Virus record (IMG/VR): IMGVR_UViG_3300021255_003058
Coordinates: 1 to 64,000 of that record
Strand: one strand, 5' to 3'
Origin: a virus
Taxonomy: Duplodnaviria; Caudoviricetes
DNA: 64,000 nucleotides
This document shows, in pieces, positions 7,683 to 22,357 of the stretch. The notes beneath the pieces were generated by a model that did not search any database, was not told where the DNA came from, and saw only the letters and a program-made list of their open reading frames with translations. The position numbers and the translations under genes were made by a program. Every line of letters begins with the position of its first letter. Positions within the stretch are counted from its first letter, which is position 1.

Positions 7683-7806
7683 TTTGACGTACAGTTACCA
7701 AAATATGGGTTAAGATTACTTACTGTAATCACCATGCAGATATTGGATTACTTACCAATGTCCAGTACTTAACTTTATAATCTCATATTTGACACTTTGT
7801 TACGTG

Positions 7807-7879
7807 TGGAGCCACCGGGCTTCGAACCCGGGATCTCTGCGTGCAAGGCAGAAGTGTTAGCCAACTATACCATGACCCC
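7807..7879 (-). tRNA. tRNA-Ala(TGC)
   Basis: Cloverleaf, loop CTTGCAC. Confidence 0.9.
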
Positions 7880-7936
7880 AAATGGTAATTTTTTATATCA
7901 CTAAATTTATCAAGAGAACTACCAAACTCATTGATT

Positions 7937-8075
7937 ATATCAAGGAACGTTCGACAAAAGTTCATAGAGTTGGATTCGAACCAACGACCTCCAGTTTTCA
8001 AGGCTGGTGTTCTACCACTGAACTACCCTTTCAAATTATTGGGAAAGAAGTAACTCTTATCTACACCATTGACAT
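7937..8075 (-). tRNA. Circularly permuted tRNA (anticodon TGA) flanked by split intron-like element
   Basis: Order: element 3' half, (C)TTTCCCA, spacer, GAAAGGG..D..anticodon..T arm, element 5' half. Confidence 0.7.
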
Positions 8076-8078
8076 TTG

Positions 8079-8149
8079 TTGCGTAGGGAGAAGTCGAACC
8101 CCCAGCACAAGGTTATGAGCCTTATATGTTACCCTTACACCACCACGCG
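8079..8149 (-). tRNA. tRNA-Met(CAT), C1:A72 initiator-like
   Basis: Cloverleaf, loop CTCATAA. Confidence 0.85.
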
Positions 8150-8303
8150 ATATTTACTACTCTGTATATAAACAAAAAAATCAATTTTAAATAATTGGAC
8201 AGATTTTACTGTTACTGTCATCACCTACACCTACGATTAGGAAACTCGTTTGAATTATTTCAGGGACGGAATACATTACGTTGAGGCGCGACCTCTTTTG
8301 ATG

Positions 8304-8375
8304 AGGCGCTACTGAGAATCGAACTCAGATTATCGGGTTACAAAGCCGAGGTAATAACCATTATACTAAAGCGCC
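8304..8375 (-). tRNA. tRNA-Thr(TGT)
   Basis: Cloverleaf, loop TTTGTAA. Confidence 0.85.
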
Positions 8376-8385
8376 ATTTCTTTAA

Positions 8386-8468
8386 AATTTCATGTAACTA
8401 ACAAAGAAAGTATTATATAATATAAACCTTAACATATTGATGTAACTCTCTTTTACAACAATGAAATT
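8386..8468 (-). ncRNA. Bipartite intron-like element, permuted order, short cargo
   Basis: AATTTCAT-TGTTGTA-AAAGAGAGT-TACATC...ACTTTCTTT-GTTAGTTAC-ATGAAATT. Confidence 0.75.
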
Positions 8469-8470
8469 AG

Positions 8471-8554
8471 TTGCGGGGGTTGGAATCGAACCAACACAAG
8501 CATTTTCTGTCTCAAGGTTATGAGCCTTGCATCTTACCATTAGACTACCCCACG
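8471..8554 (-). tRNA. tRNA-Met(CAT), C1:A72, long variable region
   Basis: Cloverleaf, loop CTCATAA, 17-nt variable region. Confidence 0.8.
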
Positions 8555-8626
8555 ATTTTTTAAAAATTTATTCCTTTTGTTTAATAATAATTAAACCAAT
8601 TTAGTTTTTATCATTTAATTTATGTG

Positions 8627-8700
8627 TAGGGTGTGATGGACTTGAACCACCGACCTTGAAGGTATAAGCTTCCTGCGCTAACCTACTGCGCCAACACCCC
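8627..8700 (-). tRNA. tRNA-Ile(TAT)
   Basis: Cloverleaf, loop CTTATAC. Confidence 0.85.
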
Positions 8701-8759
8701 ATATTATAATCATTATAAATAAATATAGTTTTCTAAAAAAATCAATTCAAAAATATATG

Positions 8760-8924
8760 TTGCCACTGCAGGACTCGAACCTGCGACCCCGAGCTTATCA
8801 GGCTGAAGTAACTCTTATCTTCAACAATAATATCATTCATATGTTTACATATTATAATTAATAATATTACGTAACTATCGACAAAGTAAACGTTACGTGC
8901 TCTATCCAACTGAGCTAAATGGCA
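8760..8924 (-). tRNA. tRNA-Ile(GAT) with 91-nt intron (8805-8895) in anticodon stem
   Basis: Removing the insert restores the stem CG|AGC/GCTCG and a full cloverleaf. Confidence 0.85.
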
Positions 8925-8930
8925 ATTTTG

Positions 8931-9150
8931 TAGCGGCCATGGGAGTCGAACCCATTATTTGTAGGTGCTATATCCCTACCGTGATCGTTTCCTAAACAAG
9001 TAACTTAGTTCCTCACTTTATCCCGGGCTTGCTTAACATTTAACCTTGTTTATTTCTTGATGCTGTTAAATACTCATATCAAAATTATAAGTTTTAACAT
9101 AGTCCGTCGACCACATCAACTTAGAAACATTTCCGTTTCACTCGGACACT
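8931..9150 (-). tRNA. tRNA-like gene with about 145-nt D-loop insertion and 9-nt anticodon loop
   Basis: GTGA/TCAC D stem, GTAGG/CCTAC stem, canonical T arm. Confidence 0.5.
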
Positions 9151-9161
9151 GAAGTTAATTG

Positions 9162-9296
9162 CGGGGACGATTGGAGTCGAACCAATTTTTGATTATTTGA
9201 CAGATAATTGCATTGAAGTAACTCACACTCTACACTATCATTATATTAATGAAGAAAAACGAATGAAGTTTTATACTACCGTTTTGCTACATCCCC
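9162..9296 (-). tRNA. tRNA-Asp(GTC) with about 63-nt intron (9215-9277) in D loop
   Basis: Cloverleaf restored after removing insert ending GAGTTACTTC. Confidence 0.8.
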
Positions 9297-9303
9297 ATAA
9301 TTG

Positions 9304-9439
9304 CTGGAGGGGTTGGATTCGAACCAACACTCTTTTGTTTATCAGACAAATACATTAACCTTTGAAGTAACTCACATTCTACACTACCTTCTGGAGAACC
9401 ACAAACGAAGTTTTAAATCTTTTTTTATGTTACCCTCCA
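9304..9439 (-). tRNA. tRNA-Ile(GAT) with about 63-nt intron (9364-9426) in D loop
   Basis: Cloverleaf restored after removing insert ending GAGTTACTTC. Confidence 0.8.
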
Positions 9440-9445
9440 ATAATG

Positions 9446-9518
9446 CGCGCCCTGAAGGAGTCGAACCCTCATCTACTGGGTTTGGAGTCCAGTGCCTTAA
9501 CCATTAGACCAAAGACGC
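9446..9518 (-). tRNA. tRNA-Trp(CCA)
   Basis: Cloverleaf, loop CTCCAAA. Confidence 0.9.
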
Positions 9519-9546
9519 ATTATAGTTTATTTTATTCAAACAATTG

Positions 9547-9625
9547 TACAGCGGGTGGGACTCGAACCCACATACACCAATTACGTGGTTAATGTCAGTG
9601 TATAAGACTGCGACGATACCGCTGT
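9547..9625 (-). tRNA. D-armless tRNA-like gene, anticodon TAT, long variable region
   Basis: Perfect acceptor ACAGCGG/CCGCTGT and T arm; only about 8 nt where the D arm should be. Confidence 0.65.
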
Positions 9626-9629
9626 AAAT

Positions 9630-9822
9630 AATATTTTAACTCACCTAAGTATTTTGTGATATGGTCCACTCAACTTATCCTTTGGCCTCGGATCCTAAGT
9701 AATTGCAACTCCTTAGGGTACTGTACCACCTACACAAGATCATTTCTTACTTTCACCATAACATGTAGATGTAACTCTACTACTTATAAGTATATGTCTT
9801 GTTCCGATCTGGTTAAAATATT
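9630..9822 (-). ncRNA. Putative structured ncRNA
   Basis: Closed by AATATTTTAAC/GTTAAAATATT; internal hairpins. Confidence 0.4.
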
Positions 9823-9824
9823 TG

Positions 9825-9896
9825 TTGCGGAAGTGAGATTTGAACTCCACCACTAAGGTTATGAGCCTTGTATGCGACCAACACACTGCTTCCGCG
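9825..9896 (-). tRNA. tRNA-Met(CAT), C1:A72 initiator-like
   Basis: Cloverleaf, loop CTCATAA. Confidence 0.75.
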
Positions 9897-9902
9897 ATAT
9901 TG

Positions 9903-9976
9903 TGCCTCCATAGGGACTCGAACCCTAACCTCACAGATTAAGAGTCTGGTACGCTAACCATTAACGCCATGGAGGC
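9903..9976 (-). tRNA. tRNA-Lys(CTT)
   Basis: Cloverleaf, loop CTCTTAA. Confidence 0.9.
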
Positions 9977-9979
9977 AAA

Positions 9980-10591
9980 TTATGTATTTAAAAATTCTTT
10001 TATTTGATTAATCAAATTTTCTTTATCATTATTTGACATTTTTTTATATTCAGACCAACGTATTCTAATTCCTTCCCAACCTTTTGTTTTTAAATATTCT
10101 GTTCTTTCAATATCATGTTTAATCATATAATCTGAATAATGTTGTTCACCATCAATTTCTACATATTTCATTAAATTTTCATTATAAAAATCTAATTCAT
10201 ATCTATCAATTTGTTTATGATATTGTAATGGAATATTTTCTTTAACAAACAATTCTTCAAAATATTTTTCTGGATAACTTTGTTTAGAAGAATGATTAAT
10301 TATAAATCCAACTTTATTTGGATGCTCGTTTAAATATTTTTTTCTTGAATTTGATATTTTATTTTTTACTTCATCAGTATGATGTTTTCCTTTAAATGTT
10401 TCTCCGCATTTTTTTCTTGTTTCATCAGAAACAATAATTTCTCTACCTTCTTCTTTAGCTTTTGTAAATTGATTACTATTTTTTGAACGTAATAAATATA
10501 CTGGAGTTAATTTATTAGGATTTTTTGAACATCTCATTTCATGTTGAATTAAATGTTTACATTCCTTTCCACAATATTTACAATTAAACAT
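9980..10591 (-). CDS. Free-standing homing endonuclease-like protein (Zn finger, NUMOD3, DUF559/Vsr-like nuclease)
   Basis: CKYCGKEC, KGKHHTDEVKNKIS, YELDF..VEIDGEQH; start moved to MFNCKYC. Confidence 0.75.
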   Translation of the reverse strand: MFNCKYCGKECKHLIQHEMRCSKNPNKLTPVYLLRSKNSNQFTKAKEEGREIIVSDETRKKCGETFKGKHHTDEVKNKISNSRKKYLNEHPNKVGFIINHSSKQSYPEKYFEELFVKENIPLQYHKQIDRYELDFYNENLMKYVEIDGEQHYSDYMIKHDIERTEYLKTKGWEGIRIRWSEYKKMSNNDKENLINQIKEFLNT

Positions 10592-10609
10592 ATATTCAAA
10601 ATATTTTTG

Positions 10610-10680
10610 TGACCCCACTGGGAATCGGACCCAGGTCACGTGATTAAAAGTCACGGGCTTTACCACTAAGCTATGAGGTC
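10610..10680 (-). tRNA. tRNA-Lys(TTT)
   Basis: Cloverleaf, loop CTTTTAA. Confidence 0.9.
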
Positions 10681-10725
10681 ATAATCATATTTAAATATAG
10701 TTATTTTACCTTTATAATTTAATAG

Positions 10726-10861
10726 TGCCATCGTGGGAATCGAACCTATTCACATATTCAACTTCTATTCATATATATTGTCTCGAGCTATATACTTTCG
10801 ATTGGTTGAACCCGCCTGTACGGGGCGGCTACAGTTACCAATATACTGTGATAAACCGGCA
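10726..10861 (-). ncRNA. Expanded tRNA-like element (GTA loop, about 60-nt variable region)
   Basis: CAGT/ACTG D-like arm, CCGCC-CCGTACA-GGCGG arm, TTCAAC/GTTGAA long arm, GGTTCGATTCC T loop. Confidence 0.45.
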
Positions 10862-10874
10862 TTGTTAAGAATTG

Positions 10875-10968
10875 TGCCTGAGGTAGGATTCGAACCTACT
10901 TACTGCGAGCCCACTACGACAATTTGTTGATGCAGATCGGTTTTACAGACCGGTGCCGTTACTCAGGC
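10875..10968 (-). tRNA. D-armless tRNA-Tyr(GTA)-like gene with 37-nt variable region
   Basis: Perfect acceptor GCCTGAG/CTCAGGC, loop CTGTAAA, T arm; no D arm. Confidence 0.65.
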
Positions 10969-11135
10969 TTGGTATAGAATGCTTCTGAGTCATCTATACC
11001 ACAATAAAATACTGCTTCCTTCATAACTCTTAACTTTTAAATTTATTAATAAAACTCGGACTTACACTGTTTTAACCATTTCTAAACTAAGTAGTACTAC
11101 TTCTCCAAGGATTCGAACCTTGGTTCTGATGCCAG

Positions 11136-11220
11136 TGGGGTGGGAGGGATTCGAACCCCCTGCGTTTCATAGTAACGGATTTACAGTCCGCCGCCCTTCC
11201 ACCATCAGAGCAGCCACCCC
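11136..11220 (-). tRNA. tRNA-Tyr(GTA)
   Basis: Cloverleaf with long variable arm. Confidence 0.9.
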
Positions 11221-11486
11221 AAAAGGTGGAAATTAAAACCGGAATTTCCACGAACCGGCTAAACGTATTTAGCAGTGTTTCATGCGTGGTATAAGTTTAG
11301 ATTCAACCACTGATAAGCCACAACTTATCGCTGTCCGAATTTAAAAGGCTCGGATCTGTTCCTTGTTACTGTTGAGAATTATATCGTCTCAACAGCCCGT
11401 GTTAAATCTATTTTCAACAAACCGACTTAACCAAACTATCTCCATTTCTTCCCATATAATTTGTTATATAAACATATAACAAATAG

Positions 11487-11559
11487 CGGTCCGTACGGGA
11501 ATCGAACCCGTACCACACGGCGTGACAAGCCGGCATTGTTACCGTTCAACCAACGGACC
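11487..11559 (-). tRNA. tRNA-Asp(GTC)
   Basis: Cloverleaf, loop TTGTCAC. Confidence 0.9.
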
Positions 11560-11696
11560 AAATATGGTTGTCATCCAGATACCAAAAAACTGGGAGCAGA
11601 TTTCTCGATTATCCATTCCAACGTCATTGTCTTTACACTTGATACACCTGGACCAAGAGGAAAAATGATAACCCTTATAAGCATGGCATGCAAGAG

Positions 11697-11769
11697 TGGG
11701 GCGGCAGAGAATCGAACTCTGGTTGGTAGGATGTAAGCCTACTGTCCTGGACCACTAAACGACCTCCCC
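11697..11769 (-). tRNA. tRNA-Val(TAC)
   Basis: Cloverleaf, loop CTTACAT. Confidence 0.85.
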
Positions 11770-11936
11770 ATTAAAATTCATATAAATTCACCGAATGGAT
11801 TTGACATTTGTTTTCTTAAGACAAGTCAACATTTACACATTTATTATTCGGTTTATATCAGCCGAACAGCCGTGACAGCTTCCACTTAAATATGAATTTT
11901 TTATATATTGATGCAGTCACATCCAATTTTAATTTG

Positions 11937-12025
11937 TAGCTCCGATGGGAGTTGAACCCACACGCCCATTTGTCTGGACCTCAGTTTTTAAGACTGATGC
12001 GTACTACCAATTTCGCCACGGAGCC
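11937..12025 (-). tRNA. tRNA-Leu(TAA)
   Basis: Cloverleaf with long variable arm. Confidence 0.9.
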
Positions 12026-12051
12026 ATATTGAACAATATGAAACCGTTGTG

Positions 12052-12124
12052 TACCTCCGGTGGGACTCGAACCCACAATCCTCGGCTTAAGAGACCGCAG
12101 CTTTACCAACTCAGCTACAGAGGC
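12052..12124 (-). tRNA. tRNA-Lys(CTT)
   Basis: Cloverleaf. Confidence 0.9.
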
Positions 12125-12138
12125 ATAATTTATAATTG

Positions 12139-12213
12139 TGCTCCCATAGTGATTCGAACCCTGACATCATATGTTAAAAATCTGGTACGCTAACCAATTA
12201 ACGCCATGAGAGC
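12139..12213 (-). pseudogene. Degenerate tRNA-Lys(TTT)
   Basis: Anticodon stem unpaired (CCAGA/CATAT); resembles the Lys gene at 9903. Confidence 0.65.
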
Positions 12214-12219
12214 ATATTG

Positions 12220-12292
12220 TACCCCCTCAGGGACTCGAACCCTGGATCCTCGGCTTAAAAGGCCGCAGCTTTACCAGCTCAGCTAAGAGGGC
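12220..12292 (-). tRNA. tRNA-Lys(TTT)
   Basis: Cloverleaf. Confidence 0.9.
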
Positions 12293-12477
12293 ATACACAT
12301 AATAAATTTCTGAATTAATTATTAAATTCATTTGTTTTGATTTTGATTTTACGTGCATGCTTCTTTTGGTTAAAACATAATACCAATTTCTCTCAGGAAA
12401 CATACACAACTAACGTTTTCGTTTCATTGTTTTCATATGTTTTTAATTTATATTTATAAGTTATTATTTTCTATTTG

Positions 12478-12551
12478 CGGTGACGAGGGGATTCGAACCC
12501 CCACCACACGGATTGACAGTCCGGCATTGTAACCATTCAAACCACGCCACC
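12478..12551 (-). tRNA. tRNA-Asp(GTC)
   Basis: Cloverleaf. Confidence 0.9.
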
Positions 12552-12576
12552 AAAATATATCACTTAGTTTATTTGG

Positions 12577-12648
12577 CGGTCCATGAGGGAGTCGAACCCT
12601 CATCTTGTGATCGACAGTCACATATTCTAACCGTTATACCAATGGACC
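12577..12648 (-). tRNA. tRNA-Asp(GTC)
   Basis: Cloverleaf, encoded CCA. Confidence 0.9.
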
Positions 12649-12693
12649 AAATATCTGTCACCTAAGTGATCCAAATTATTATTTTCTTCATAG

Positions 12694-12779
12694 TAGCTCG
12701 AGCGGGACTCGAACCCGCACGCCCCTTTCGGAACACGACATTTTAAGTGTCGGAAGTCTACCAATTCCTCCATCGAGCC
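12694..12779 (-). tRNA. tRNA-Leu(TAA)
   Basis: Cloverleaf with long variable arm. Confidence 0.9.
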
Positions 12780-12861
12780 ACATTATGGATGAAATTAGCG
12801 TTTTCGGACCACGGGAAGCTCTTCATCCTTTCAGTTGTCAATTCAACACTCAAACCACTCG

Positions 12862-12935
12862 CGGGGACAGAGGGATTCGAACCCACAACCATCGGCTTAA
12901 CAGGCCGCCGCTCTGACCATTATAGCTATATCCCC
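12862..12935 (-). tRNA. tRNA-Asn(GTT)
   Basis: Cloverleaf. Confidence 0.9.
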
Positions 12936-13145
12936 AAGTATAAAAATCAATTCTATACAAGTTTCATTACGGACACTTATTAGAAACTTTATCCTTTGTC
13001 ATAATAACCTCCGAAGCTTTTTGACCTACCCAATGTTATTGTTATTTTATTACTCTCATATTGTCTAAGACCTCTTAATAGTTATTGCAAATGTTCTATT
13101 AAGTTTTCATAAATAATCAATAACCCATAACCTCAAATTGATTTG

Positions 13146-13266
13146 CTATTCAGTGGGATTCGAACCCAACTAACTTGACCGGTTTCCTCATTGCAATCAG
13201 GCCTAATCAAGTAGCCACTTACATCTTCCCTACTGGGACGTTTTATCCATTTAAACTATAAACAAA
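13146..13266 (-). ncRNA. tRNA-like element with stub anticodon hairpin and long insertion
   Basis: D arm GTTT/AAAC, TCCC-AGTA-GGGA, long CTACTTGATT/GGTCAAGTTAG arm, T arm. Confidence 0.5.
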
Positions 13267-13376
13267 TTACTACGGCAATTAGTAATGATTTGTGAGATTC
13301 ACCAGTCCTACTCGATTATTTTGCCGTTCATCTTTCAGTTCACCATTTTGTTACTGGATCTGTCCCGCCATGTTCG

Positions 13377-13448
13377 CGGGAGTAGAGGGAATCGAACCCA
13401 CACCGAGTGGTTAACAGCCACCTGCTACGACCTTCGAGCTATACTCCC
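13377..13448 (-). tRNA. tRNA-Asn(GTT)
   Basis: Cloverleaf. Confidence 0.9.
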
Positions 13449-13633
13449 AAATTTAGATGTTTAATTCTAAATTTTTTGTCAATTAATTTATATTTATCTT
13501 TATATGATTCAATTACACCTAAATTATATAAATCATCTCCAAAATAAATATCTAAATTATCTGTAAATTGTTCCCATTTACAAAAATCTTTTAATGTAGG
13601 ATAACCTTTAATTTCAATATACATCGAAGACAT
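13439..13633 (-). CDS. hypothetical small protein
   Basis: AT-rich coding-like ORF between tRNAs; TAG stop overlaps tRNA-Asn 5' end. Confidence 0.4.
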   Translation of the reverse strand: MSSMYIEIKGYPTLKDFCKWEQFTDNLDIYFGDDLYNLGVIESYKDKYKLIDKKFRIKHLNLGV

Positions 13634-13643
13634 TCATATTAAG

Positions 13644-13732
13644 TTCCTAATATTGGATTTACACCAATGACCTCTCTGTTACTACTCTAAAGGCAACGAT
13701 GAGCGCTCTTATAATATCTGAGCTAATTAGGA
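13644..13732 (-). ncRNA. tRNA-like element with extended anticodon arm
   Basis: Acceptor TCCTAAT/ATTAGGA, D arm GCTC/GAGC, T loop TGTAAAT. Confidence 0.55.
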
Positions 13733-14086
13733 TTCTTAATGATATGGAAATTCTGTTAATGGTAACTGACCAGATTTGCAATAATTGCTTATGGTTACTG
13801 ACCATATTATATTTACTGAACTATTTCGCTGAGGTGCTTGGCATCTCATTGAAAGGGGTTTTCCACCACTCCTCTTCCGTATCAGTTTTTATATTTTGTT
13901 GTACCAATATGTCAATGATCGCTTCGTTCATTGAAACTCTCAGTTTCAATAATGAAATGATTATGTCAAAGAACTCAATTTCAAAAACTAAATATAATTA
14001 GTTTTCAAATATTATATTAATAATATAGAACTTATTTTCAAAATTTCAAATTTCTAAGAAAAATTTTCAAATATTTTCTACATTTG

Positions 14087-14212
14087 TGATTATGGTTGGA
14101 TTCGAACCAACGTAGCTCAGGGTAACTTACTTCCTCAGTTTAACTTTATCAAGAAACCTTCTAACGTTTTCAGCAGTGACCTGATAGCACATCCAATCTG
14201 CTTCACATAATC
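14087..14212 (-). tRNA. tRNA-like gene with about 60-nt anticodon-loop region
   Basis: Acceptor GATTATG/CATAATC, TCAGG/CCTGA stem, canonical T arm. Confidence 0.55.
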
Positions 14213-14228
14213 AAAGATCTATTTTTTG

Positions 14229-14296
14229 TTTCTACATCCGGATTCGAACCGAAGACCCCTTCTTCCAAGTGCTCTTCCTAACTGAGCTATGTAGAA
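14229..14296 (-). tRNA. tRNA-like gene with truncated anticodon arm
   Basis: Good acceptor, D and T arms; anticodon arm only CTT-GGAAG-AAG. Confidence 0.6.
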
Positions 14297-14391
14297 AATC
14301 AGCTTTCATAAAAACTACCATACTCCATTATATACATACGGCCGATATTATATAACTTCATTACTCTCATTAATAATCCCACTTAAAAATG

Positions 14392-14462
14392 TTGGACCTA
14401 CGGGACTCGAACCCATAACATGAGGACCAAAATCTCACGTGTTACCATTACACCAAGGTCCA
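14392..14462 (-). tRNA. tRNA-Gln(TTG)
   Basis: Cloverleaf. Confidence 0.9.
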
Positions 14463-14853
14463 ATTTATAAAAAATCCAGTACTATTCTTCTATAATGTTC
14501 ATTTAAGTGCGAATCCTTGCTTTACATGTGGTGGGTCACTTTACCCTGATTTTCAAATTCCCATGGAAATTATCAATCCCTCATATATAGTACCTTTGTA
14601 CTTTTACAAATTGTCGTTACATAATAATATCCTATTACACGAGTACCTTTAACCTACTGACAACTTGTGGATTTTATTTTCTCTTGAGTTCATATTTTCA
14701 AAGAACGAAATAAACAATTTCAAATATTAAATGTTCATATGAAAAATTCATATTATATTAGTATTCAAATATTATTTATTTTTATTATAATTATAATATA
14801 GTATCTTTAGATTTAATTTCAAATTATTTAAGAATTTTTTAGAAAATATTTTC

Positions 14854-14949
14854 AAAAAATAAGTGGTTAAGTTTTTCACCTAACCACTTGCAGCTATATC
14901 GTTTATAATTATATTCTTATTATCCTTCCATATCATTCTGCAAGTGGTC
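14854..14949 (-). promoter_or_regulatory. Attenuator 2: terminator with competing antiterminator
   Basis: Terminator AAGTGGTTAGG-TGAAAAA-CTTAACCACTT-ATTTTTT; GACCACTTGCAG in the leader ORF pairs with CTGCAAGTGGTT. Confidence 0.75.
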
Positions 14950-15030
14950 ATTCATTAACGCATAATCATTATTCCAAGCATTATCTAATGTTTGGTCTAA
15001 TATTTGTTTATATGTATTGACTAATTGCAT
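14920..15030 (-). CDS. Leader peptide 2 MQLVNTYKQILDQTLDNAWNNDYALMNDHLQNDMEG
   Basis: 36-codon ORF overlapping the antiterminator; composition matches downstream tRNAs. Confidence 0.7.
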   Translation of the reverse strand: MQLVNTYKQILDQTLDNAWNNDYALMNDHLQNDMEG

Positions 15031-15213
15031 TTGTGATATTTTCTTTAATTTAATTTGTATATACTTACATCTATTGATGTAATTTAATTAATAATAAAAA
15101 TTTAATTCTTAATTGTTATATAAAAATAGACTATATAAATAAAAAATTTCATAAAAATGAATGATTATGAAAATATTTTTCAAAAATCATCCAAATATAG
15201 TGTCAATTGCGAG

Positions 15214-15295
15214 TACCTCCCCTGGGATTCGAACCCAGACCCAATTAAGGACCGCTTTTGAGACGGTTGCGTAGACCCAATTCCGCCAGAGAGGC
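15214..15295 (-). tRNA. tRNA-Leu(CAA)
   Basis: Cloverleaf with variable arm. Confidence 0.9.
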
Positions 15296-15426
15296 ATAAT
15301 TATAAAAAGTTAGAATCATATACAGTAAGGGCTTCGTTCATTGGCTTCTCATTTCATGTATTTCTACAATCTCATCTATTCCTTCCCTTAATCATAACTT
15401 TATATAACAAATGTTGATACAATAAA

Positions 15427-15675
15427 TTAGTTTATCTTATACAATTCTTCATTATCAATTGCACGTCTTATCCATCTCATCAATATTAATGCTTTATCGT
15501 AATGAGACATAAATGTAGCTGTTTCTCCAACATCATGTTTATCAGACAAATCTATATCAAGTGAATAAATTGTACCATCTTCTACTGTTATATGATAAAC
15601 AGCTATTCCTCCAGATTTTACACAATCAAGTTCAGCAGAACCTTTAACAATAGTTTTTAAATCATGAATAATCAT
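15427..15675 (-). CDS. hypothetical protein
   Basis: 82-aa coding-like ORF. Confidence 0.7.
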   Translation of the reverse strand: MIIHDLKTIVKGSAELDCVKSGGIAVYHITVEDGTIYSLDIDLSDKHDVGETATFMSHYDKALILMRWIRRAIDNEELYKIN

Positions 15676-15699
15676 TTATACTAATATTTATTTTTATTG

Positions 15700-15779
15700 T
15701 GCGGCTGGTGGGATTCGAACCCACACCCAATTAAGGACGGCTTCTTAAACCGCTGCGTCGACCGTTGCGCCACAGCCGC
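15700..15779 (-). tRNA. tRNA-Leu(AAG)
   Basis: Cloverleaf, loop TTAAGAA. Confidence 0.85.
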
Positions 15780-15920
15780 ATTTAGTATTTTCTGCATAGG
15801 AGAACCTTGGATTTAATGAGTAACGATAACCACTCATCCTATGGTTATTGAAAATACTTTTACTATTGTTTTATTTTAACCGATAAAACTAAATAGCTTA
15901 AATTGTCGATATCGTTTTTG

Positions 15921-15994
15921 TACCCCGAGAAGGATTCGAACCCTCATCATGACATCCGTAGTGTCGTATTCTAAATCCATTGAACTACCGGGGC
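15921..15994 (-). tRNA. tRNA-Arg(ACG)
   Basis: Cloverleaf, loop CTACGGA. Confidence 0.9.
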
Positions 15995-16003
15995 ATTTAT
16001 TTG

Positions 16004-16079
16004 TTGAACTGGACAGATTCGAATTGTCGACCTTCTGTGTGTAAAACAAATACTACTGACCTAATTGAATTACAACCCA
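16004..16079 (-). tRNA. tRNA-Val(TAC), degenerate
   Basis: Cloverleaf with mismatches, loop TTTACAC. Confidence 0.6.
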
Positions 16080-16088
16080 ATATATATG

Positions 16089-16162
16089 CTGGGGTACCGG
16101 GACTCGAACCCAGAACTTCTGCTTCAGAGACAAATGTGTTAACCAATTACACGCATACCCTA
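16089..16162 (-). tRNA. tRNA-Gln(CTG)
   Basis: Cloverleaf, loop CTCTGAA. Confidence 0.8.
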
Positions 16163-16264
16163 ATTTAATAAATTAGACACATTCTGTTATTTAGTTAACC
16201 GAGCAGATATTTTGATTCTTTCAGGTTTCAATCATCTAAGAAACAAATGCAGGCATCTAATTTG

Positions 16265-16351
16265 TACCCTGGGGGAGACTTGAACTCCCACGCTACTATT
16301 ACTTCGCACTTGCTTCTAAGGCAAGGATGTCTACCATTCCAACACCAGGGT
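16265..16351 (-). tRNA. tRNA-Leu(TAG)
   Basis: Cloverleaf with long variable arm. Confidence 0.9.
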
Positions 16352-16566
16352 AAATAGTGTCCATGTTCCATTAACGCAGGTCTTAGACACCTAACCGCAC
16401 GAATAACCATCACAACAATTGGTTACGTTATCAATCAACCAAATTACCTTTCTATAAGATTTTATGACATCCAGTTTGGAGGCAACGGCCATCTTGCTCT
16501 AATGCTGCGTACGCCTGGCACCGATTTTACATCTTAGTAAATAAGATAACTTATAGATCATAATTG

Positions 16567-16635
16567 CCACCGAAGATGGAATCAAACCATCGTCTCTTGG
16601 CAAAATCCAAGGCTCTATCATTGAGCTAATCGGTG
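16567..16635 (-). tRNA. tRNA-like gene with 6-nt anticodon loop
   Basis: CTTGG-ATTTTG-CCAAG; D and T arms present. Confidence 0.55.
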
Positions 16636-16865
16636 AAGTGACCTTTCGAGTTTCAACGGGGCTCCTCGTCCCCTATAGGATGTGACACATATCCGAAGAT
16701 ACAAAATGCAACAACTCTAACTAACGCTTCTACAGATTCCTTAGGTCAACAAGGAATGGAACAAACGATTTCCCCTAAGTGACAGAGACATTAGACTGTT
16801 TCGATTCATAGGCCTGTGCACCAACCTATGAATACCCGTAATTGTATATAGTATTATCTTTAAAA

Positions 16866-18002
16866 TTATTTCAATTGGTCTTCAATTTCCTTAATCATTT
16901 TATTTACCTTTTCAAGATATTCTTTTGCATCACGTATTGATTCATCAGATGAAGATCTATCGAAACTTCCCCAGTTTTCAGGATTTTCTTTACCTCTTTC
17001 TTTTGCGCGTTGAACTGATTTTTCTGCTGAATGTTTATAATTCATTGATTTATAGAATTGTTCATATGCATAAGAAACATATCTCATTAAATCTGATAAA
17101 TCAAAACGCATATCCATATTTTCAGGTTTTGACATTACCTTTTGGAATAAAGCAACAACATCATCATTTGTTTTCTTTATTTCATCAAACAAAACATTTG
17201 GATCATCTTGAAGTTTCTTTGCTTTGATTTCTTTTACCATTACTTTATATCTTGCTTGTTGTTGTCTAAGAAGATTATCCATGCTATCTTTGTCCATTTC
17301 TATTGAACCTTTTTGAGATTCTTCGCGTTCTTTATGTAATTGATCATAATCTTTAATCATTGATTCTGTTATTTCAAGAACATAAACATCAAAATCTTTA
17401 ATTAATTCTAATGTTTCATTAACTTTTAAAGGACGAACATCATATTTATATTTCTTTGCAGTTTTCTCTTGGACTCCTTGTTTCCAACCTTCTGACTCAA
17501 AATAATATACTCTAACATCTCCTAAAGTTTTTGCATATCCTTTAATAAATGCAACAATATCTTTAGTACCTGGAGTACAAACAATCATATCAGCAATAGT
17601 TTTCTTTGCATAAACTGATTTTAAGAACTTTACAAATTCTTTATCGTCACCTTTATATTGTTTGAAATCACTATCTTTAATTTCTGACCATTTCAAACCA
17701 CGAATACCACTTTTCTTGTCACCCCATCTTGGAGTTTCTGTTAATGGACCAAAAATAGATGCAAAAGTTTTTGCTGTCTTTGTTGGCTTATAACCGCGAC
17801 CTCCTTCTTTGTATCTTTGCTCTTGTTTCTTGTCGTTTTCAGCATGTTCCTTTTCAGCATCTTTAATTGCTTTTGCAAGATTTGTTAATAATGATGATTG
17901 AAAACTCTCATTAATTGTTTCATCAATAATTAAATTACATGTTTCAATTAATATTTCATTATTACATAAACCGTCTGATACGAATTCAAATAAATTTTTC
18001 AT
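16866..18002 (-). CDS. hypothetical protein
   Basis: 378-aa ORF. Confidence 0.8.
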   Translation of the reverse strand: MKNLFEFVSDGLCNNEILIETCNLIIDETINESFQSSLLTNLAKAIKDAEKEHAENDKKQEQRYKEGGRGYKPTKTAKTFASIFGPLTETPRWGDKKSGIRGLKWSEIKDSDFKQYKGDDKEFVKFLKSVYAKKTIADMIVCTPGTKDIVAFIKGYAKTLGDVRVYYFESEGWKQGVQEKTAKKYKYDVRPLKVNETLELIKDFDVYVLEITESMIKDYDQLHKEREESQKGSIEMDKDSMDNLLRQQQARYKVMVKEIKAKKLQDDPNVLFDEIKKTNDDVVALFQKVMSKPENMDMRFDLSDLMRYVSYAYEQFYKSMNYKHSAEKSVQRAKERGKENPENWGSFDRSSSDESIRDAKEYLEKVNKMIKEIEDQLK

Positions 18003-18038
18003 TATATTATATATATTTTTTTATATATAAAAATAAAA

Positions 18039-18359
18039 TTATAATTTCATTTGTTTCTGATATTTTCTATCTCTCTTATCAATTTCTGATAATGGAGAAA
18101 CACCAGCATCAAGCAATTCAATTTTCTCAAATCCATTTGCTTCAGTTATAAGAGAATCTTTTTCAGATATGCATCCTTCATATCGTTCTCCATAAGATCC
18201 AGTCATCTTTTTTGTTGCAGGATCTAAATCTCCCCAATCTGCAGAATGTGTATTACCAATAGGTTCTACAAAATATTTCTTTCCTGTTATTTTAGACTTT
18301 ACAATAAAACGACCAGTTTTATCGCTTTCTTGTAAAAATCTCTTTTCATCAATTTTCAT
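18039..18359 (-). CDS. hypothetical protein
   Basis: Start moved to MKIDEK to avoid tRNA overlap. Confidence 0.75.
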   Translation of the reverse strand: MKIDEKRFLQESDKTGRFIVKSKITGKKYFVEPIGNTHSADWGDLDPATKKMTGSYGERYEGCISEKDSLITEANGFEKIELLDAGVSPLSEIDKRDRKYQKQMKL

Positions 18360-18379
18360 TTTCTCTCTATATATTATTG

Positions 18380-18470
18380 CGGAGAGGGTGGGGCTCGAAC
18401 CCACGCACCGGGTATTAGCCGACCTAAGACGTTAGCAGTGTCTCCCCTTCACCAACTTGGGTACCTCTCC
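18380..18470 (-). tRNA. tRNA-Ser(GCT)
   Basis: Cloverleaf with long variable arm. Confidence 0.9.
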
Positions 18471-18536
18471 AAATTGGTTGATCAATTGGCTCAACCATAG
18501 GCCTTAATAGATGAAATGGTTACAACTTACTTACTT

Positions 18537-18621
18537 AATTCCGCGCGAGATTCGAACTCATATTTCTTCAATGAACGTTCGCAAAGTGTTTTCTCCTTTA
18601 TTAAATTTAAACTACAAGAAT
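18537..18621 (-). pseudogene. Degenerate tRNA-like gene
   Basis: T arm and D stem present; enlarged D and anticodon loops. Confidence 0.4.
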
Positions 18622-18640
18622 CTTTCAGTCATTTCATTTG

Positions 18641-18714
18641 GGTGACTTGTGGGTAACGATCCCACTACCTGTTGAGCCACAATCAACCGCTCTACCATTT
18701 GAGCTAAAGCCACC
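18641..18714 (-). tRNA. tRNA-His(GTG)
   Basis: G-1/C73, loop TTGTGGC, atypical T loop. Confidence 0.8.
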
Positions 18715-18848
18715 ATATAAATTAGTTTTTCTCATTAAGAGCTTTTGCATTATAAAACTATAAACTTTCCCGAATCTGTACGTTTCGGTAACTGATGTTC
18801 TTATGGTAATCAATTAACAGTACGTTAAAGCGCGCAACTTTGTTTATG

Positions 18849-18923
18849 GGTATCGTGTCAGATTCGAACTGACATCTCAGTGATTCACAGTCACCGTCTT
18901 TCACCAGTTAAGTTAACGACACC
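18849..18923 (-). tRNA. tRNA-His(GTG)
   Basis: G-1/C73, loop CTGTGAA. Confidence 0.85.
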
Positions 18924-19158
18924 ATATTAATGACAGGTCAACCATTCTCCCTGTCTTGTCCCGATATGTTTTTCACTATAATCAAGGCTTATAGCTGCTC
19001 AAGCAAAGAGGGCGGGATTTCAACATTATATTGTAAATTAAAATTCACAATTTTTATAACCTCATGAAGATGGCCCTACACGGATTAAAAAGGCTGCAGA
19101 GAATCCTCTATTGGAGCAGGGTGGACATGCTGCGTACCTCACAGCTCCCTGCATATTG

Positions 19159-19230
19159 AGCAGTGTACCGGATTTGAACCGGCTCCTTAAGAATGGCGAT
19201 CTCATATGCAACCATTAACACCTACACTGC
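19159..19230 (-). tRNA. tRNA-Gly(GCC)
   Basis: Cloverleaf, U73. Confidence 0.85.
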
Positions 19231-19231
19231 A

Positions 19232-20143
19232 TTATTTTTCATATAATACTTCCCAAAATTTATTTCCATATTTATTAATAACATATTCAAATACTTCAGT
19301 TAAATCTTCTTTAAATAAAACTTTAATATCTGGATTTTGCTCAGATTTTATTTGAGCAACTTTATCATAATATCCTTTTATTTCAATTATTTCATTATCA
19401 TTAATAATAAAATCTGGAAAATATTTACAAACTTTTTTATTTAATTTATAATATCTTATTTCATCGCACCTTTTAATTTTTATATTATGTTCTAAACAAT
19501 ATACCAAATAAGCTAATTCCCATGAACTATCACAATGAATACCTTTATAGTTTCCATGATGATGATTTTTAATAGAATTTGGATGATAACCACCAAAATT
19601 ATTTTTCTTTGCGTTATCGCTTAACTTAGTATGTTTACCAATTTTTAAGCATTCATTTGAACAATATTTTAATTTCTTATTATAATATTTTTTACCACAA
19701 ATAGGACATATATTATAAGGCGTCCAATCTGGATTTACTGTCCATCGATTATTAATATTTAAATTATTAATTCTTTTCTTACCCTTTATCCATGATGATT
19801 TACCCTTTAAAGAATCAGCTATTTTCTTATTCTTTTCTTCTAAATTTGTATGTAATGATGATAACTTATGAGCACATGAAGAACAACACGTTTTTCTATA
19901 ATCACCTGCATTAAATTGTTTTTGTCTTATTTGTAATGTATATTCTTTACCACAAGCTAAACATATTAATTTATACTCTTTTAGAGGATTATTTTTTTCA
20001 AATTTTTCTTTTTTTCGTAAAGAAAAATCTTTTTGATATGAATTAGGATTTTTACTACAATGTATAATATGAGCCCCTAATGATTGACCAGAGTTAAATT
20101 CTTTATTACAAAATTTACAAATATGTTTTTTATTATCTTCCAT
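19232..20143 (-). CDS. Free-standing homing endonuclease-like protein (Zn fingers, PD-(D/E)XK nuclease)
   Basis: CxxC motifs; DSSWELAY..YFPDF..IEIKG. Confidence 0.75.
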   Translation of the reverse strand: MEDNKKHICKFCNKEFNSGQSLGAHIIHCSKNPNSYQKDFSLRKKEKFEKNNPLKEYKLICLACGKEYTLQIRQKQFNAGDYRKTCCSSCAHKLSSLHTNLEEKNKKIADSLKGKSSWIKGKKRINNLNINNRWTVNPDWTPYNICPICGKKYYNKKLKYCSNECLKIGKHTKLSDNAKKNNFGGYHPNSIKNHHHGNYKGIHCDSSWELAYLVYCLEHNIKIKRCDEIRYYKLNKKVCKYFPDFIINDNEIIEIKGYYDKVAQIKSEQNPDIKVLFKEDLTEVFEYVINKYGNKFWEVLYEK

Positions 20144-20224
20144 ATATTAATATAGTTTTATATAATTAATAATAAATATAGCAGAAGAAAAAAGTCAAAC
20201 TATAATTGTTAAAAAATGTTAAAG

Positions 20225-20297
20225 AGCGACTGATGGGAGTCGAACCCACATCACTGGATTGGAAGTCGAGTATAATAAACCGTTATACGACAGTCGC
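20225..20297 (-). tRNA. tRNA-Gly(TCC)
   Basis: Cloverleaf, U73. Confidence 0.85.
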
Positions 20298-20417
20298 AAA
20301 TTCGGTTTTCCTTAGATCCGAAAACTTAGTACCGTGTCTCGCCTCTGTACCCTCGCCTTAGCATACTTCCATTATATTATATAGTACGTAATTCAAATAT
20401 AATGTCTAAGGATTTTG

Positions 20418-20551
20418 TAGGGGAGGTTGGACTCGAACCAACATAATCTTTAACCAAAATAAAGTGTGTAAACCTGAAGTAACTCTAATCTACAGCATTC
20501 ATTAAGAAGCAACAGCGAATAAAGTCAATAAATTAATTTCACCACTCCCCT
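20418..20551 (-). tRNA. tRNA-Gln(TTG) with about 61-nt intron (20476-20536) in D loop
   Basis: Cloverleaf restored after removing insert ending GAGTTACTTC. Confidence 0.8.
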
Positions 20552-20553
20552 AG

Positions 20554-20627
20554 TAGCCCCCACGGGATTCGAACCCGTTATTCCGGCTTGAGAGACCGAC
20601 GACTTAAACCAATCTGTCCCGAGGGCC
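20554..20627 (-). tRNA. tRNA-Glu(CTC)
   Basis: Cloverleaf. Confidence 0.85.
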
Positions 20628-20634
20628 ATCAAAT

Positions 20635-20777
20635 AATTCCTGTAACATGCTTGAAAAGTGTTTTTATGGACTCGAACCATCACCTCGGGCTTTGCAGGCC
20701 CGCGCTCTAACCACTTAAGCTAAAAATCCAAAGTTTCTGGTGGATTAAGAAGTAACTCTTCAATTCAACAAGGAATT
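20635..20777 (-). tRNA. Circularly permuted tRNA-Cys(GCA) flanked by split intron-like element
   Basis: Acceptor 3' strand with CCA (TTAATCC-A-CCA, 20738-20748) lies upstream of the body GGATTTT..T arm (20666-20729). Confidence 0.8.
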
Positions 20778-20881
20778 TGGGTGGAGGTATCTTATCACTA
20801 TCAGATATCCGATTGTTTTTCTTTGCAAGATATAATTATAAGTACTGTTTAACTAGTCCTGCGCAAGTGAACCTCCATGTG

Positions 20882-20953
20882 TACCGATAGGCTGAGTTGA
20901 ACAGCCATCTAAGCCTTATGAGAGCCCCGTAATTACCGTTATACGATATCGGC
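20882..20953 (-). tRNA. tRNA-Met/Ile2(CAT)
   Basis: Cloverleaf, loop CTCATAA. Confidence 0.85.
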
Positions 20954-21247
20954 ATGGTCACCGGCCTAGTTCCATGCCTACCTCGAGTAGCATAGGATGG
21001 GACCGGTGTTGTATGGTCGGGAACCACTGACTTTCACAGGACCTCTACCCACCAACGGGTAGCGCAGTGTGTTCGCTTCTTCAAATTCAATTTCATAAGG
21101 TAGCTAATCTTACTAATTTTTCTCTCTGTCATTACTTATCATTATTATAAATATTATTGATCTCGAGAACTTTTGACCTAATCGCGGTCTTACGCAAATA
21201 TTTATAAATAATGACTTTCATACGAATCATTTTGCTAATTCCCAAAG

Positions 21248-21320
21248 TTGAGCGACCGGGACTTGAACCCGGATTGCGTGATTATCAGTCACGTCTCTTA
21301 ACCGTTTGGAGGATCGCTCA
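21248..21320 (-). tRNA. tRNA-Ile(GAT)
   Basis: Cloverleaf. Confidence 0.85.
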
Positions 21321-21324
21321 ATAT

Positions 21325-21403
21325 ATTCATGTAACATTCGAGAAAAGTAAATTTGGAATAATCTTGGCAAGATTTGAAGTATCTCTTCTCTACAACAATG
21401 AAT
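21325..21403 (-). ncRNA. Bipartite intron-like element, permuted order, short hairpin cargo
   Basis: ATTCAT-TGTTGTA-GAGAAGAGA-TACTTC...ACTTTTCTC-GAATGTTAC-ATGAAT. Confidence 0.75.
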
Positions 21404-21406
21404 TTG

Positions 21407-21480
21407 TTGGGCTACCGAGATTCGAACTCAGACCTTCAGCTTCAAAGGCTGACGTGCTAACCGTTACACAGCATAGCCCA
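21407..21480 (-). tRNA. tRNA-Gln(TTG)
   Basis: Cloverleaf. Confidence 0.85.
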
Positions 21481-21486
21481 ATATAA

Positions 21487-21611
21487 AAAATAATGCTACC
21501 TATTACACCACTCCCCGAATTACACTTTCACCTACAATGTTCATGACCATTAAGGAATCCCTCCATATAGAAGGCGACACAGGGAATTGGGATTCGAACC
21601 CAAACCATTTT
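21487..21611 (-). tRNA. Permuted tRNA-like gene opened at the anticodon loop
   Basis: 3' half (AAAAT..T arm..TTCCCTG) precedes 5' half (CGGGGAG..D arm..ATTTT); 61-nt spacer. Confidence 0.65.
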
Positions 21612-21617
21612 CGTTCG

Positions 21618-21691
21618 TTGGGATATCCGGATTCGAACCGAAACCTGCGGAGTCAGAGTCCGCTGTACTAACCATTATACTGTATATCCCA
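21618..21691 (-). tRNA. tRNA-Gln(CTG)
   Basis: Cloverleaf. Confidence 0.85.
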
Positions 21692-21714
21692 ATATTGTTA
21701 AAATTTTATTATTG

Positions 21715-21787
21715 TTGGGCCACTCGGGAATGATCCGAGATCGCATCCTTATCAGGGATGTATCCTTACCAGTTAGACGACAGCCCA
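21715..21787 (-). tRNA. tRNA-Ile(GAT)
   Basis: Cloverleaf, atypical T loop. Confidence 0.8.
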
Positions 21788-22125
21788 ATATAAAATTGAA
21801 ATTCTTGCAAGTAATACTTAGATAAACCCATCCTGTTTGGACCGTTCTGGGAATTAATAAGTTAACGTCAAATACCAGACTTCCCACGAATAGCATGCTT
21901 TCGAGACATACCTAATTAACTTCCTATTATCTTTGTATAATTTCAATTTAATTTGAAATAAAGTTCTGTTCCATCTCGCTCAATGTATTTAAGCTTAAGC
22001 CTATGGGAGTTCTTTCTTGATGCGCACTCGATTATGACAACTCCAGCAAGTGATATGTGGTAAATTTCCGGATAACCCATATCTCTAATGCCAACTTTAC
22101 CCATCTGTCTGGGATGTGAACTTTG

Positions 22126-22199
22126 TACGGATAAGCAGATTCGAACTGCCATCTCCAGCTTGAAAGGCTGGCCACCTAACCTATTAGTAAGATACCCGC
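22126..22199 (-). tRNA. tRNA-Glu(TTC)
   Basis: Cloverleaf. Confidence 0.85.
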
Positions 22200-22202
22200 A
22201 TG

Positions 22203-22280: not shown

Positions 22281-22285
22281 ATTTG

Positions 22286-22357
22286 TAGCCCCGCGGAGAC
22301 TCGAACTCCGATGACCAGGTTGAAAACCTGAGATCCTGACCGTTAGATGACAGGGCC
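22286..22357 (-). tRNA. tRNA-Glu(TTC)
   Basis: Cloverleaf. Confidence 0.9.

Follow-up and report, generated by a model that had tools for sequence, protein, structure and literature searches.

The closest described systems are the attenuators of amino-acid operons, namely the multivalent leaders of ilvGMEDA and ilvBN (Ile, Leu, Val) and of thr (Thr, Ile), together with trpL, hisL, leuL, and pheL. With all of these the locus described here would share a short translated ORF, pairing between the end of this ORF and an arm of the terminator, and a choice of helix made by the position of the ribosome. Sensing codons that name the products of the controlled genes are a further common feature, and the ilv and thr leaders likewise sense more than one amino acid. 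In E. coli, pheST (pheM leader) subjects phenylalanyl-tRNA synthetase to attenuation by the supply of charged tRNA. This is likewise a leader-peptide attenuator acting on a component of translation, although a single amino acid is sensed, by means of a codon run, and the gene under control is a synthetase. T-box leaders have in common with our locus a terminator/antiterminator switch that would respond to particular tRNAs, so that the aim is alike and the mechanism different. As for tRNA genes themselves, their regulation is known through promoter strength and the stringent response, and we know of no leader-peptide attenuator ahead of them.

The window, that is, the whole stretch of DNA analysed here, is 64,000 nucleotides long and makes up the initial 64 kb of an IMG/VR viral record that is 116 kb in length (completeness estimate, 44%). 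The phage genome has a GC content of 27%, and part of its tRNA array matches Prevotella Lak-B megaphages at 72–73% DNA identity. Judged by sequence, it is a phage of the same group as the Lak megaphages, a giant gut or rumen phage. The array extends over 20 kb and holds about 51 tRNA genes, every one on the minus strand. A CUA suppressor tRNA closes the array, a feature also reported for Lak phages (PMC6784885). An SD-like sequence was found before only 2 of 67 long ORFs of the phage, which fits a Bacteroidetes host, as mRNAs of this phylum lack an SD (PMC7366714). For the same reason, the missing SD before the short ORF that we call leader B is no argument against its translation. Leader-peptide attenuation has been inferred in Flavobacterium, a member of the presumed host phylum (PMC9723704), which, together with the lack of an SD in Bacteroidetes mRNAs (PMC7366714), makes this type of control plausible there. 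The main elements of the array are the following.

15030..14920, minus strand: leader B, a 36-codon ORF that ends in TAA and is unbroken in 13 distinct relatives
14462..6556, minus strand: downstream tRNA sub-array (ARAGORN)
26577..26446, minus strand: leader A, an ORF of 43 codons at the head of the upstream sub-array, with a complementary roster of amino acids
15213..26069, minus strand: upstream tRNA sub-array (ARAGORN and Rfam)

Leader B lies between tRNA-Leu(CAA) (15295..15213) on one side and tRNA-Gln(UUG) (14462..14391) on the other. The downstream sub-array supplies Gln, Asn, Leu(UAA), Asp, Lys, Val, Tyr, Trp, Ile, Met, Thr, and Ala, and the upstream one Glu, Cys, Gly, Phe, Pro, Ile(GAU), Gln, Met, His, Ser, Leu(CUN/UUG), and Arg. 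A tRNA found by Rfam alone at 16004–16079 reads as a degenerate Val(UAC), so that Val belongs to both blocks. We propose that leaders B and A are ribosome-mediated transcription attenuators which gate the entry of RNA polymerase into the phage tRNA blocks, a reading that we consider probable.

An earlier note on this DNA had pointed out a 36-codon ORF using twelve amino acids in its first 28 codons, the same twelve as the tRNAs downstream. The count was confirmed, including the codon choices: codons 1–28 of leader B encode exactly Met, Gln, Leu, Val, Asn, Thr, Tyr, Lys, Ile, Asp, Ala, and Trp, with Leu as TTA (4/4), Ile as ATA (1/1), Thr as ACA (2/2), and Gln as CAA (3/3). The identity with the downstream set is true of the conventional tRNAs only, since ARAGORN also called an atypical 74-nt Ser(UGA) without a long variable arm, the CUA suppressor, and odd tRNA-like genes in this sub-array. 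Similarly, the match between codons and anticodons that the note had claimed stood for the Leu, Ile, Thr, and Gln codons and did not extend to Val (GTC) or Ala (GCT/GCG), which under strict wobble are noncognate to the anticodons of the block. As TTA, CAA, and ACA are already favoured throughout the phage (62% of Leu, 86% of Gln, and 59% of Thr codons, respectively), the codon-level match alone is weak evidence, apart from the contrast of ATA and ATT between leaders B and A (see below).

At the level of amino acids, the overlap proved to be above chance. All 27 residues after the initial Met fall within the set of twelve (P = 3.6e-5, with the amino-acid composition of the phage as null), only 3 of 21,714 windows of 28 residues from phage proteins lie wholly within it, and leader B was the only one of 315 small ORFs in the genome with such a roster prefix longer than 20. 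When we considered just the portion ahead of the switch, all residues were again within the downstream tRNA set (P ~5e-5). AT bias as the cause of this overlap was ruled out by the P value obtained under the phage's own composition and by the window count. It was also contradicted by leader A, which is rich in other amino acids with AT-rich codons (Phe, Glu, Ser, and Ile-ATT). We propose codons 2–26 of leader B as the sensing part. There are no tandem codon runs in this ORF; the roster amino acids are scattered, with 1–6 occurrences each, which makes its sensitivity to a mild shortage doubtful.

Leader A presents the complementary picture. Its codons 1–30 encode Met, Lys, Gln, Leu, Ser, His, Ile, Glu, Phe, Gly, Pro, Cys, and Arg, so that the upstream sub-array (26069..15213) is represented in full and the only addition is a single Lys, at codon 2. 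Accordingly, 28 of the 29 residues in codons 2–30 belong to the upstream set (P = 3e-7). Counting only amino acids exclusive to one sub-array, the ratio of upstream to downstream residues was 19:1 in leader A versus 0:17 in leader B (Fisher, 1.1e-9); a hand calculation by amino-acid types rather than residues gave about 1e-4 for leader B and about 1e-3 for leader A. The two leaders differ in their Ile codon in the same sense as their blocks, with ATA in leader B (block tRNA-Ile UAU) versus ATT in leader A (block tRNA-Ile GAU). The TTA and AGA codons of leader A are noncognate to the block anticodons under strict wobble. Jointly, leaders A and B cover all 20 amino acids. A blind scan of the entire 116-kb record for an ORF combined with a terminator and complementarity returned only these two on the tRNA strand, and each of them heads a tRNA sub-array.

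The RNA elements predicted for both leaders are listed below.

14950..14938, minus strand: 5′ arm of the leader B antiterminator, made up of codons 28–31 and the final base of codon 27
14893..14881, minus strand: 3′ arm of the antiterminator, overlapping the terminator 5′ arm
14889..14861, minus strand: intrinsic terminator of leader B, with a 12-bp stem and a 5-nt loop, followed by a U tract at 14860..14853
14974..14995, minus strand: hairpin within the leader B ORF, codons 12–19, predicted in all folds
26473..26487, minus strand: leader A segment (codons 31–35) complementary to the terminator 5′ arm and the bases just before it
26427..26398, minus strand: leader A terminator, with an 11-bp stem, a 4-nt loop, and a U tract

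The terminator of leader B begins thirty bases past the stop codon and is the sole strong terminator-like site on the minus strand within 6500..26400. The pairing of codons near the end of the ORF with its 5′ arm, as claimed in the earlier note, is real and comprises 13 bp with one G-U, starting in codon 27 (14950..14938 with 14893..14881). Because the 3′ arm shares bases with the terminator 5′ arm, antiterminator and terminator are mutually exclusive. The antiterminator is the minimum-energy fold of 14840–15060 (z = −4.96; none of 200 shuffles as stable), and the duplex between its arms has an energy of −22.3 kcal/mol, versus −9.5 ± 2.2 for shuffled ORFs (0/300 as low). With these exclusive helices and a U-tailed terminator after the ORF, the trp/his-type geometry that had been recognised before was borne out. 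The hairpin of codons 12–19 does not overlap the antiterminator arm and may act as a pause or timing hairpin. No clear 1:2 anti-antiterminator helix was apparent in the leader B geometry; in some relatives, the start region is able to pair with the antiterminator arm. For leader A, the arm energy was −13.4 kcal/mol versus −8.3 ± 2.2 (15/500 shuffles as low), so that the antiterminator predicted there is weak. Neither leader B nor the conserved block downstream matched an Rfam family (cmscan of 13000–17000, E ≤ 1), only tRNAs and chance-level matches being returned, and the folding of the conserved block at 14466–14712 was no better than that of its shuffles (z = −0.18).

To follow leader B through related phages, we gathered sequences from viral and metagenome collections using the conserved block downstream of promoter P2 (see below) as an anchor, which yielded 13 distinct versions of the leader region. 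An open frame of 35–37 codons was found in 13/13, with indels in multiples of three, and the best complement to the terminator 5′ arm was always located just before the end of the ORF. In the main clade, arm energies ranged from −17 to −24 kcal/mol, versus about −9 ± 2 for shuffled ORFs (0–1/300 as low). In the divergent clade, represented by L017 and L029, the value was −13.2 kcal/mol, with 3–4 of 300 shuffles as low. The terminator stem of this clade has a quite different sequence, and the complementary segment of the leader has been replaced in step. Within the comparison of helices, no other single observation weighs as much as this concerted exchange of the two.

Pairing was counted in an alignment of 11 main-clade sequences. 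The antiterminator was 96.5% paired, with two pairs changed on both sides, and the terminator was 100% paired, with two compensatory pairs; the codons 12–19 hairpin was also 100% paired and showed one compensatory change from C-G to U-A in 4 of the 11 sequences. In L008, a change in the terminator 5′ arm is matched both in the terminator 3′ arm and in the leader arm. These counts are supportive and not decisive, as they reflect few events among mutually related sequences. In several relatives, the minimum-energy fold is the terminator and not the antiterminator. The ORF, the terminator, and the antiterminator were all kept in the 13 relatives, with compensatory changes. Two further sequences recovered by the exact terminator pattern (L003 and L004) were discarded as chance matches, having no tRNAs and a different sequence context.

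The peptide itself was found to drift. Among eight gap-free variants, codons 2–25 of leader B showed 4 synonymous and 12 nonsynonymous changes, a per-site ratio of about 0.7, which indicates that residue identity matters little. All 12 nonsynonymous variants stayed within the roster, compared with an expectation of 51% for nonsynonymous single-base neighbours (crude P = 3e-4), and a Thr to Ile and an Ala to Thr replacement are the two sides of one compensatory hairpin pair. The exceptions to the roster in relatives are confined to the last 1–2 codons adjoining the arm, where a stalled ribosome would already cover the arm. L017 and L029 encode a largely different peptide, yet its first 20–21 residues are roster-only. 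The partition of the array around leader B was identical in all relatives, with Glu, Cys, Gly, Phe, Pro, His, Ser, Arg, and Leu(CUN/UUG) upstream and Gln or Leu(UAA), Thr, Ala, Asn, Asp, Lys, Val, Tyr, Ile(UAU), Trp, and Met downstream. In close relatives, the roster is kept while the residues drift and the partition stays constant, and all comparative tests that the earlier note had proposed turned out in its favour.

The reading frame and the RNA can also be told apart. In L008, the leader arm has its eight-base core displaced by 1 nt relative to the frame of the window, and the frame is then restored to give the same ORF end. In a relative of leader A (L010:11835–11948), the arm is nucleotide-identical and lies in another frame, and the ORF is still open through it. 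As the frame is kept while the RNA motif slides, translation and structure both appear to be selected, and from these alignments the ORF and the RNA appear to be selected separately. Further relatives of leader A were sought with its terminator pattern, which gave none, and with its ORF pattern together with the neighbouring 1838-residue protein, which gave only the one contig already known. Taken together, sequence comparison shows the ORF, both helices, their mutual exclusion, the covariation, and the match between leader and tRNA block.

Homologous modules were present in the Lak megaphages. Lak-B1 (L033:14812–14925), Lak-A1, and Lak-C1 carry a homologous 37-codon ORF and a long terminator, with a promoter-like motif upstream, and their codons 27–34 could pair with almost all of the terminator's 5′ half. 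The energies of this complementarity were −18.8 (0/300), −14.2 (7/300), and −12.6 kcal/mol (23/300 shuffles as low), respectively. In Lak-A/B/C, the first tRNA (Trp) follows the U tract after about 20 nt, with no promoter between. The roster match was not significant in Lak-A/B/C, with Phe (twice), Cys, and Ser as exceptions; as a single array there covers about 78% of residues, the test has no power. The attenuator reading of the earlier note is thus strengthened by the conservation of ORF and helices, by drift within the roster, by leader A, and by the Lak modules, and it gains nothing from the Lak rosters. The arrays of the Lak phages (PMC6784885, PMC8346664) share with ours the 72–73% DNA match, a GC content of 26–27%, the CUA suppressor, insert-bearing tRNAs, and the leader with its terminator. 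The publications on Lak phages (PMC6784885, PMC8346664) cover the tRNAs with their introns as well as intergenic regions of high expression, and wording on a terminator or attenuator does not occur in PMC6784885.

The note had cautioned that a promoter-like motif lies downstream of the terminator, and this caveat was justified. The promoter motif of the phage (TTGAAW, 15–16 bases, [CA]TATATTA) occurs 10 times, always on the minus strand, versus 0.7 expected, and several copies lie 25–45 bases before the ATG of a protein gene. The elements around the leaders are as follows.

15119..15152, minus strand: P1, candidate weak promoter of leader B, a variant of the phage motif
14822..14793, minus strand: P2, directly after the leader B terminator, matching the motif and present in all close relatives
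14695..14706, minus strand: boxA-like motif downstream of P2, conserved in relatives
26316..26345, minus strand: P2-type promoter after the leader A terminator, matching the motif

Variants resembling P1 were found upstream of the leader in L002, L005, and L008. The controlled tRNAs are not free of a promoter of their own after the terminator, as P2 and the promoter at 26345 intervene. Because P2 follows the terminator, the switch probably adds to a baseline rather than acting as on/off, and the regulatory gain from it may be small. In L014, tRNA-Leu(UAA) is located between the terminator and P2, which together with the arrangement in Lak-A/B/C indicates that read-through from the leader can be a direct route into tRNA genes. 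The boxA-like motif has 4 matches on the minus strand versus 0.12 expected, one after each P2-type promoter, and presumably resembles the rrn boxA. If, by analogy, it works as in rrn, polymerases started at P2 would ignore terminators, and those coming from the leader promoter would be unprotected at the attenuator. The attenuator would then gain a distinct clientele.

The mechanism that we envisage for both leaders would operate as follows. A short transcript would start from the weak promoter upstream of the ORF, and a ribosome would translate the leader. On fast passage through the approximately 25 sensing codons, the ribosome would cover codons 27–31 or fill the 43-base loop at the stop. 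With the antiterminator arm covered or the loop filled as the terminator emerges, the terminator would form and the transcript would end. With a ribosome that is slow or stalls within the sensing part, or with none at all, the antiterminator of 13 bp would form first and allow read-through into the tRNA block; without translation, the default is thus probably read-through. As the sensing codons come only from the amino acids of the block, the switch would report the supply of those charged tRNAs, and the phage's own tRNA output would feed back on it. Translation, termination, timing, and the direction of the response we infer from the geometry. Of the hallmarks of an attenuator, we found a maintained ORF, an intrinsic terminator, an exclusive antiterminator that a ribosome could cover, and codons naming the supplied products; runs of tandem regulatory codons are absent.

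Other readings of the locus were weighed against these data. The terminator could mark an ordinary boundary between units, insulating P2 and the array, with the ORF and the pairing having no regulatory role. A terminator followed by a promoter is the commonest phage arrangement, and P2 is a genuine recurrent motif after the terminator in all close relatives. We nevertheless regard a simple boundary as unlikely, since it leaves unexplained the compensatory upkeep of the antiterminator, including the joint helix swap in L017/L029, the open frame with its indels in threes, and the rosters of two separate leaders, and since Lak-A/B/C have no promoter after the terminator. It is similarly improbable that the leaders are genes for functional micropeptides, each equipped with a promoter and a terminator, the pairing serving mRNA stability or the coupling of termination to translation and the composition being coincidental. 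The near-neutral drift of residues (12 nonsynonymous versus 4 synonymous changes, ratio about 0.7) speaks against such peptides, as does the hairpin in which Thr to Ile is coupled with Ala to Thr, where the RNA was kept and not the peptide. So do the conserved C-terminal nucleotides, for which leader A and its relative use different frames, and a composition match of P ~1e-9. These points have to be set against the conserved length and frame of the ORF, the conservation of C-terminal and a few N-terminal residues even between clades, and a dedicated promoter-like element upstream, all of which a micropeptide would account for.

Two further explanations seem less probable still. The RNA from P1 to the terminator might be an sRNA, or the structure a hairpin for the cleavage of tRNA precursors, the open frame being incidental. 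The strong folding stability would suit this, tRNA arrays need processing signals, and attenuator RNAs act in trans in other bacteria (PMC7968998). Yet a frame of 36 codons is unlikely by chance at 27% GC, it has been kept through indels and a 1-nt slide of the motif, and composition is restricted at the level of amino acids, not of nucleotides, so that we hold a purely RNA-based role to be quite unlikely. Finally, a sensor based on nascent-peptide arrest, of the TnaC, SecM, or Erm-leader type and responding to a small molecule or to the state of translation, would have the same geometry of ORF, antiterminator, and terminator, and the main clade shows conservation of a Trp and of Asp residues close to it. 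However, the Trp codon belongs to the conserved internal hairpin, residue identity is only weakly constrained, and our search for a conserved arrest motif found none that is common to the clades or to leader A. As the complementary rosters would also be left unexplained, we consider arrest very unlikely.

Attenuation by the translating ribosome is therefore the reading that we prefer. A wider claim, on which we are evenly divided, is that giant phages tune their tRNA supply via roster leaders, each sampling all the codon families of its block. If this roster reading is true, a shortage of any one tRNA would increase the transcription of its block, which would fall again after replenishment by the phage's tRNAs, and the shortage could be caused by a codon-usage mismatch with the host, by starvation, or by tRNA-cleaving defences; the link to host anticodon nucleases drawn in the earlier note is speculation. 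Such leaders would constitute a general, hitherto undescribed feedback loop on tRNA genes. They would explain how phages with dozens of tRNA genes set the amount of each tRNA set, as well as the fixed order of sub-blocks in the arrays, and would yield natural compact sensors of the charged-tRNA pool for twelve amino acids at once. It would also become testable whether phage tRNAs serve to match codon usage or to survive tRNA-directed host defences, and for this a genome that has two complementary leaders brings its own control.

With regard to known systems, a full-text literature search found no publication, on phages or on other systems, in which tRNA genes are described as being under leader-peptide attenuation; what we describe is a known type of control applied to a gene class for which no prior description was found. 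A T-box makes direct contact with uncharged tRNA, at a specifier codon and at the acceptor end, and needs no ribosome, whereas the phage has a conserved ORF instead, and no T-box or Rfam leader (Trp, His, Leu, Thr, Phe) was matched by cmscan in 13000–17000 at E ≤ 1. Leaders of amino-acid operons control biosynthetic enzymes, and those of the phage precede tRNA genes. Compared with the operon leaders, the phage system has no clear 1:2 helix, has a promoter after the terminator, and would operate in a Bacteroidetes-type host without SD. Particular to the phage system are a roster of twelve amino acids without tandem runs and two leaders that divide the amino acids between them.

Homologues of the leader ORF, 37 codons long and followed by a terminator, were found in the published genomes of the megaphages Lak-B1, Lak-A1 and Lak-C1 (unannotated records). 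In all three, ORF and terminator lie directly upstream of the first tRNA (Trp), at the following positions:

L033:14812-15014, Lak-B1
L034:12091-12284, Lak-A1
L035:12090-12283, Lak-C1

In the related locus L014 (L014:3460-3900), a tRNA-Leu(UAA) is inserted with the leader terminator on one side and the promoter P2 on the other, and the terminator has an interrupted U tract. Ahead of leader A, which heads the upstream tRNA sub-array, a stretch of about 60 nt occurs in two direct copies (26590-26740, minus strand) that lie between a promoter-like motif and the leader's start; the final portion resembles the sequence immediately upstream of the leader B start in relatives. An AT-rich hairpin, also kept in the related locus L002, may be the endpoint of upstream sub-array transcripts, before leader B's own candidate promoter.

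15152-15191 (-), 8-bp hairpin plus U run, directly after tRNA-Leu(CAA)

Between P2 and the next tRNA lies a block that is nearly unchanged across more than 20 metagenome contigs.

14466-14712 (-), near-invariant block of about 230 nt; also L002:6740-7020 and others

This block constantly follows the leader-terminator-P2 unit, regardless of which tRNA is next; some relatives carry an altered middle segment or large inserts. Portions of it are tRNA-like in appearance. An Rfam search of the block returned no family match, and its folding was not more stable than that of shuffled sequences.

Three tRNA-like genes in the array were detected by the Rfam tRNA model and missed by ARAGORN; two tRNA calls are listed after them.

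14229-14296 (-), tRNA-like, shortened anticodon arm
16004-16079 (-), tRNA-like, read as a degenerate Val(UAC)
16567-16635 (-), tRNA-like, shortened anticodon arm
7960-8033 (-), tRNA call, anticodon UGA, called Ser, 74 nt
6556-6627 (-), tRNA call, CUA suppressor

The UGA-anticodon tRNA is without the long variable arm that a tRNA-Ser should have. Because the CUA suppressor is the array's last gene, any read-through along the downstream block would end with the tRNA on which TAG recoding depends.

A phage promoter motif, TTGAAW followed after 15-16 nt by [CA]TATATTA, occurs in 10 copies against 0.7 expected, all confined to the minus strand of the whole record, and protein-gene starts lie 25-45 nt downstream of several of them.

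14822, 14049, 26345, 55165, 60206 (-), promoter motif matches
64603-91198 (-), further matches beyond the window

On the tRNA strand, the motif GTTCTTTGA[AC]A[AT] was matched four times (0.12 expected), each time with a promoter motif upstream.

13963-13974, 14695-14706, 25872-25883, 26073-26084 (-), pattern matches

This motif, which we take to be similar to the rrn boxA, may confer terminator resistance on polymerases initiating at P2-type promoters.
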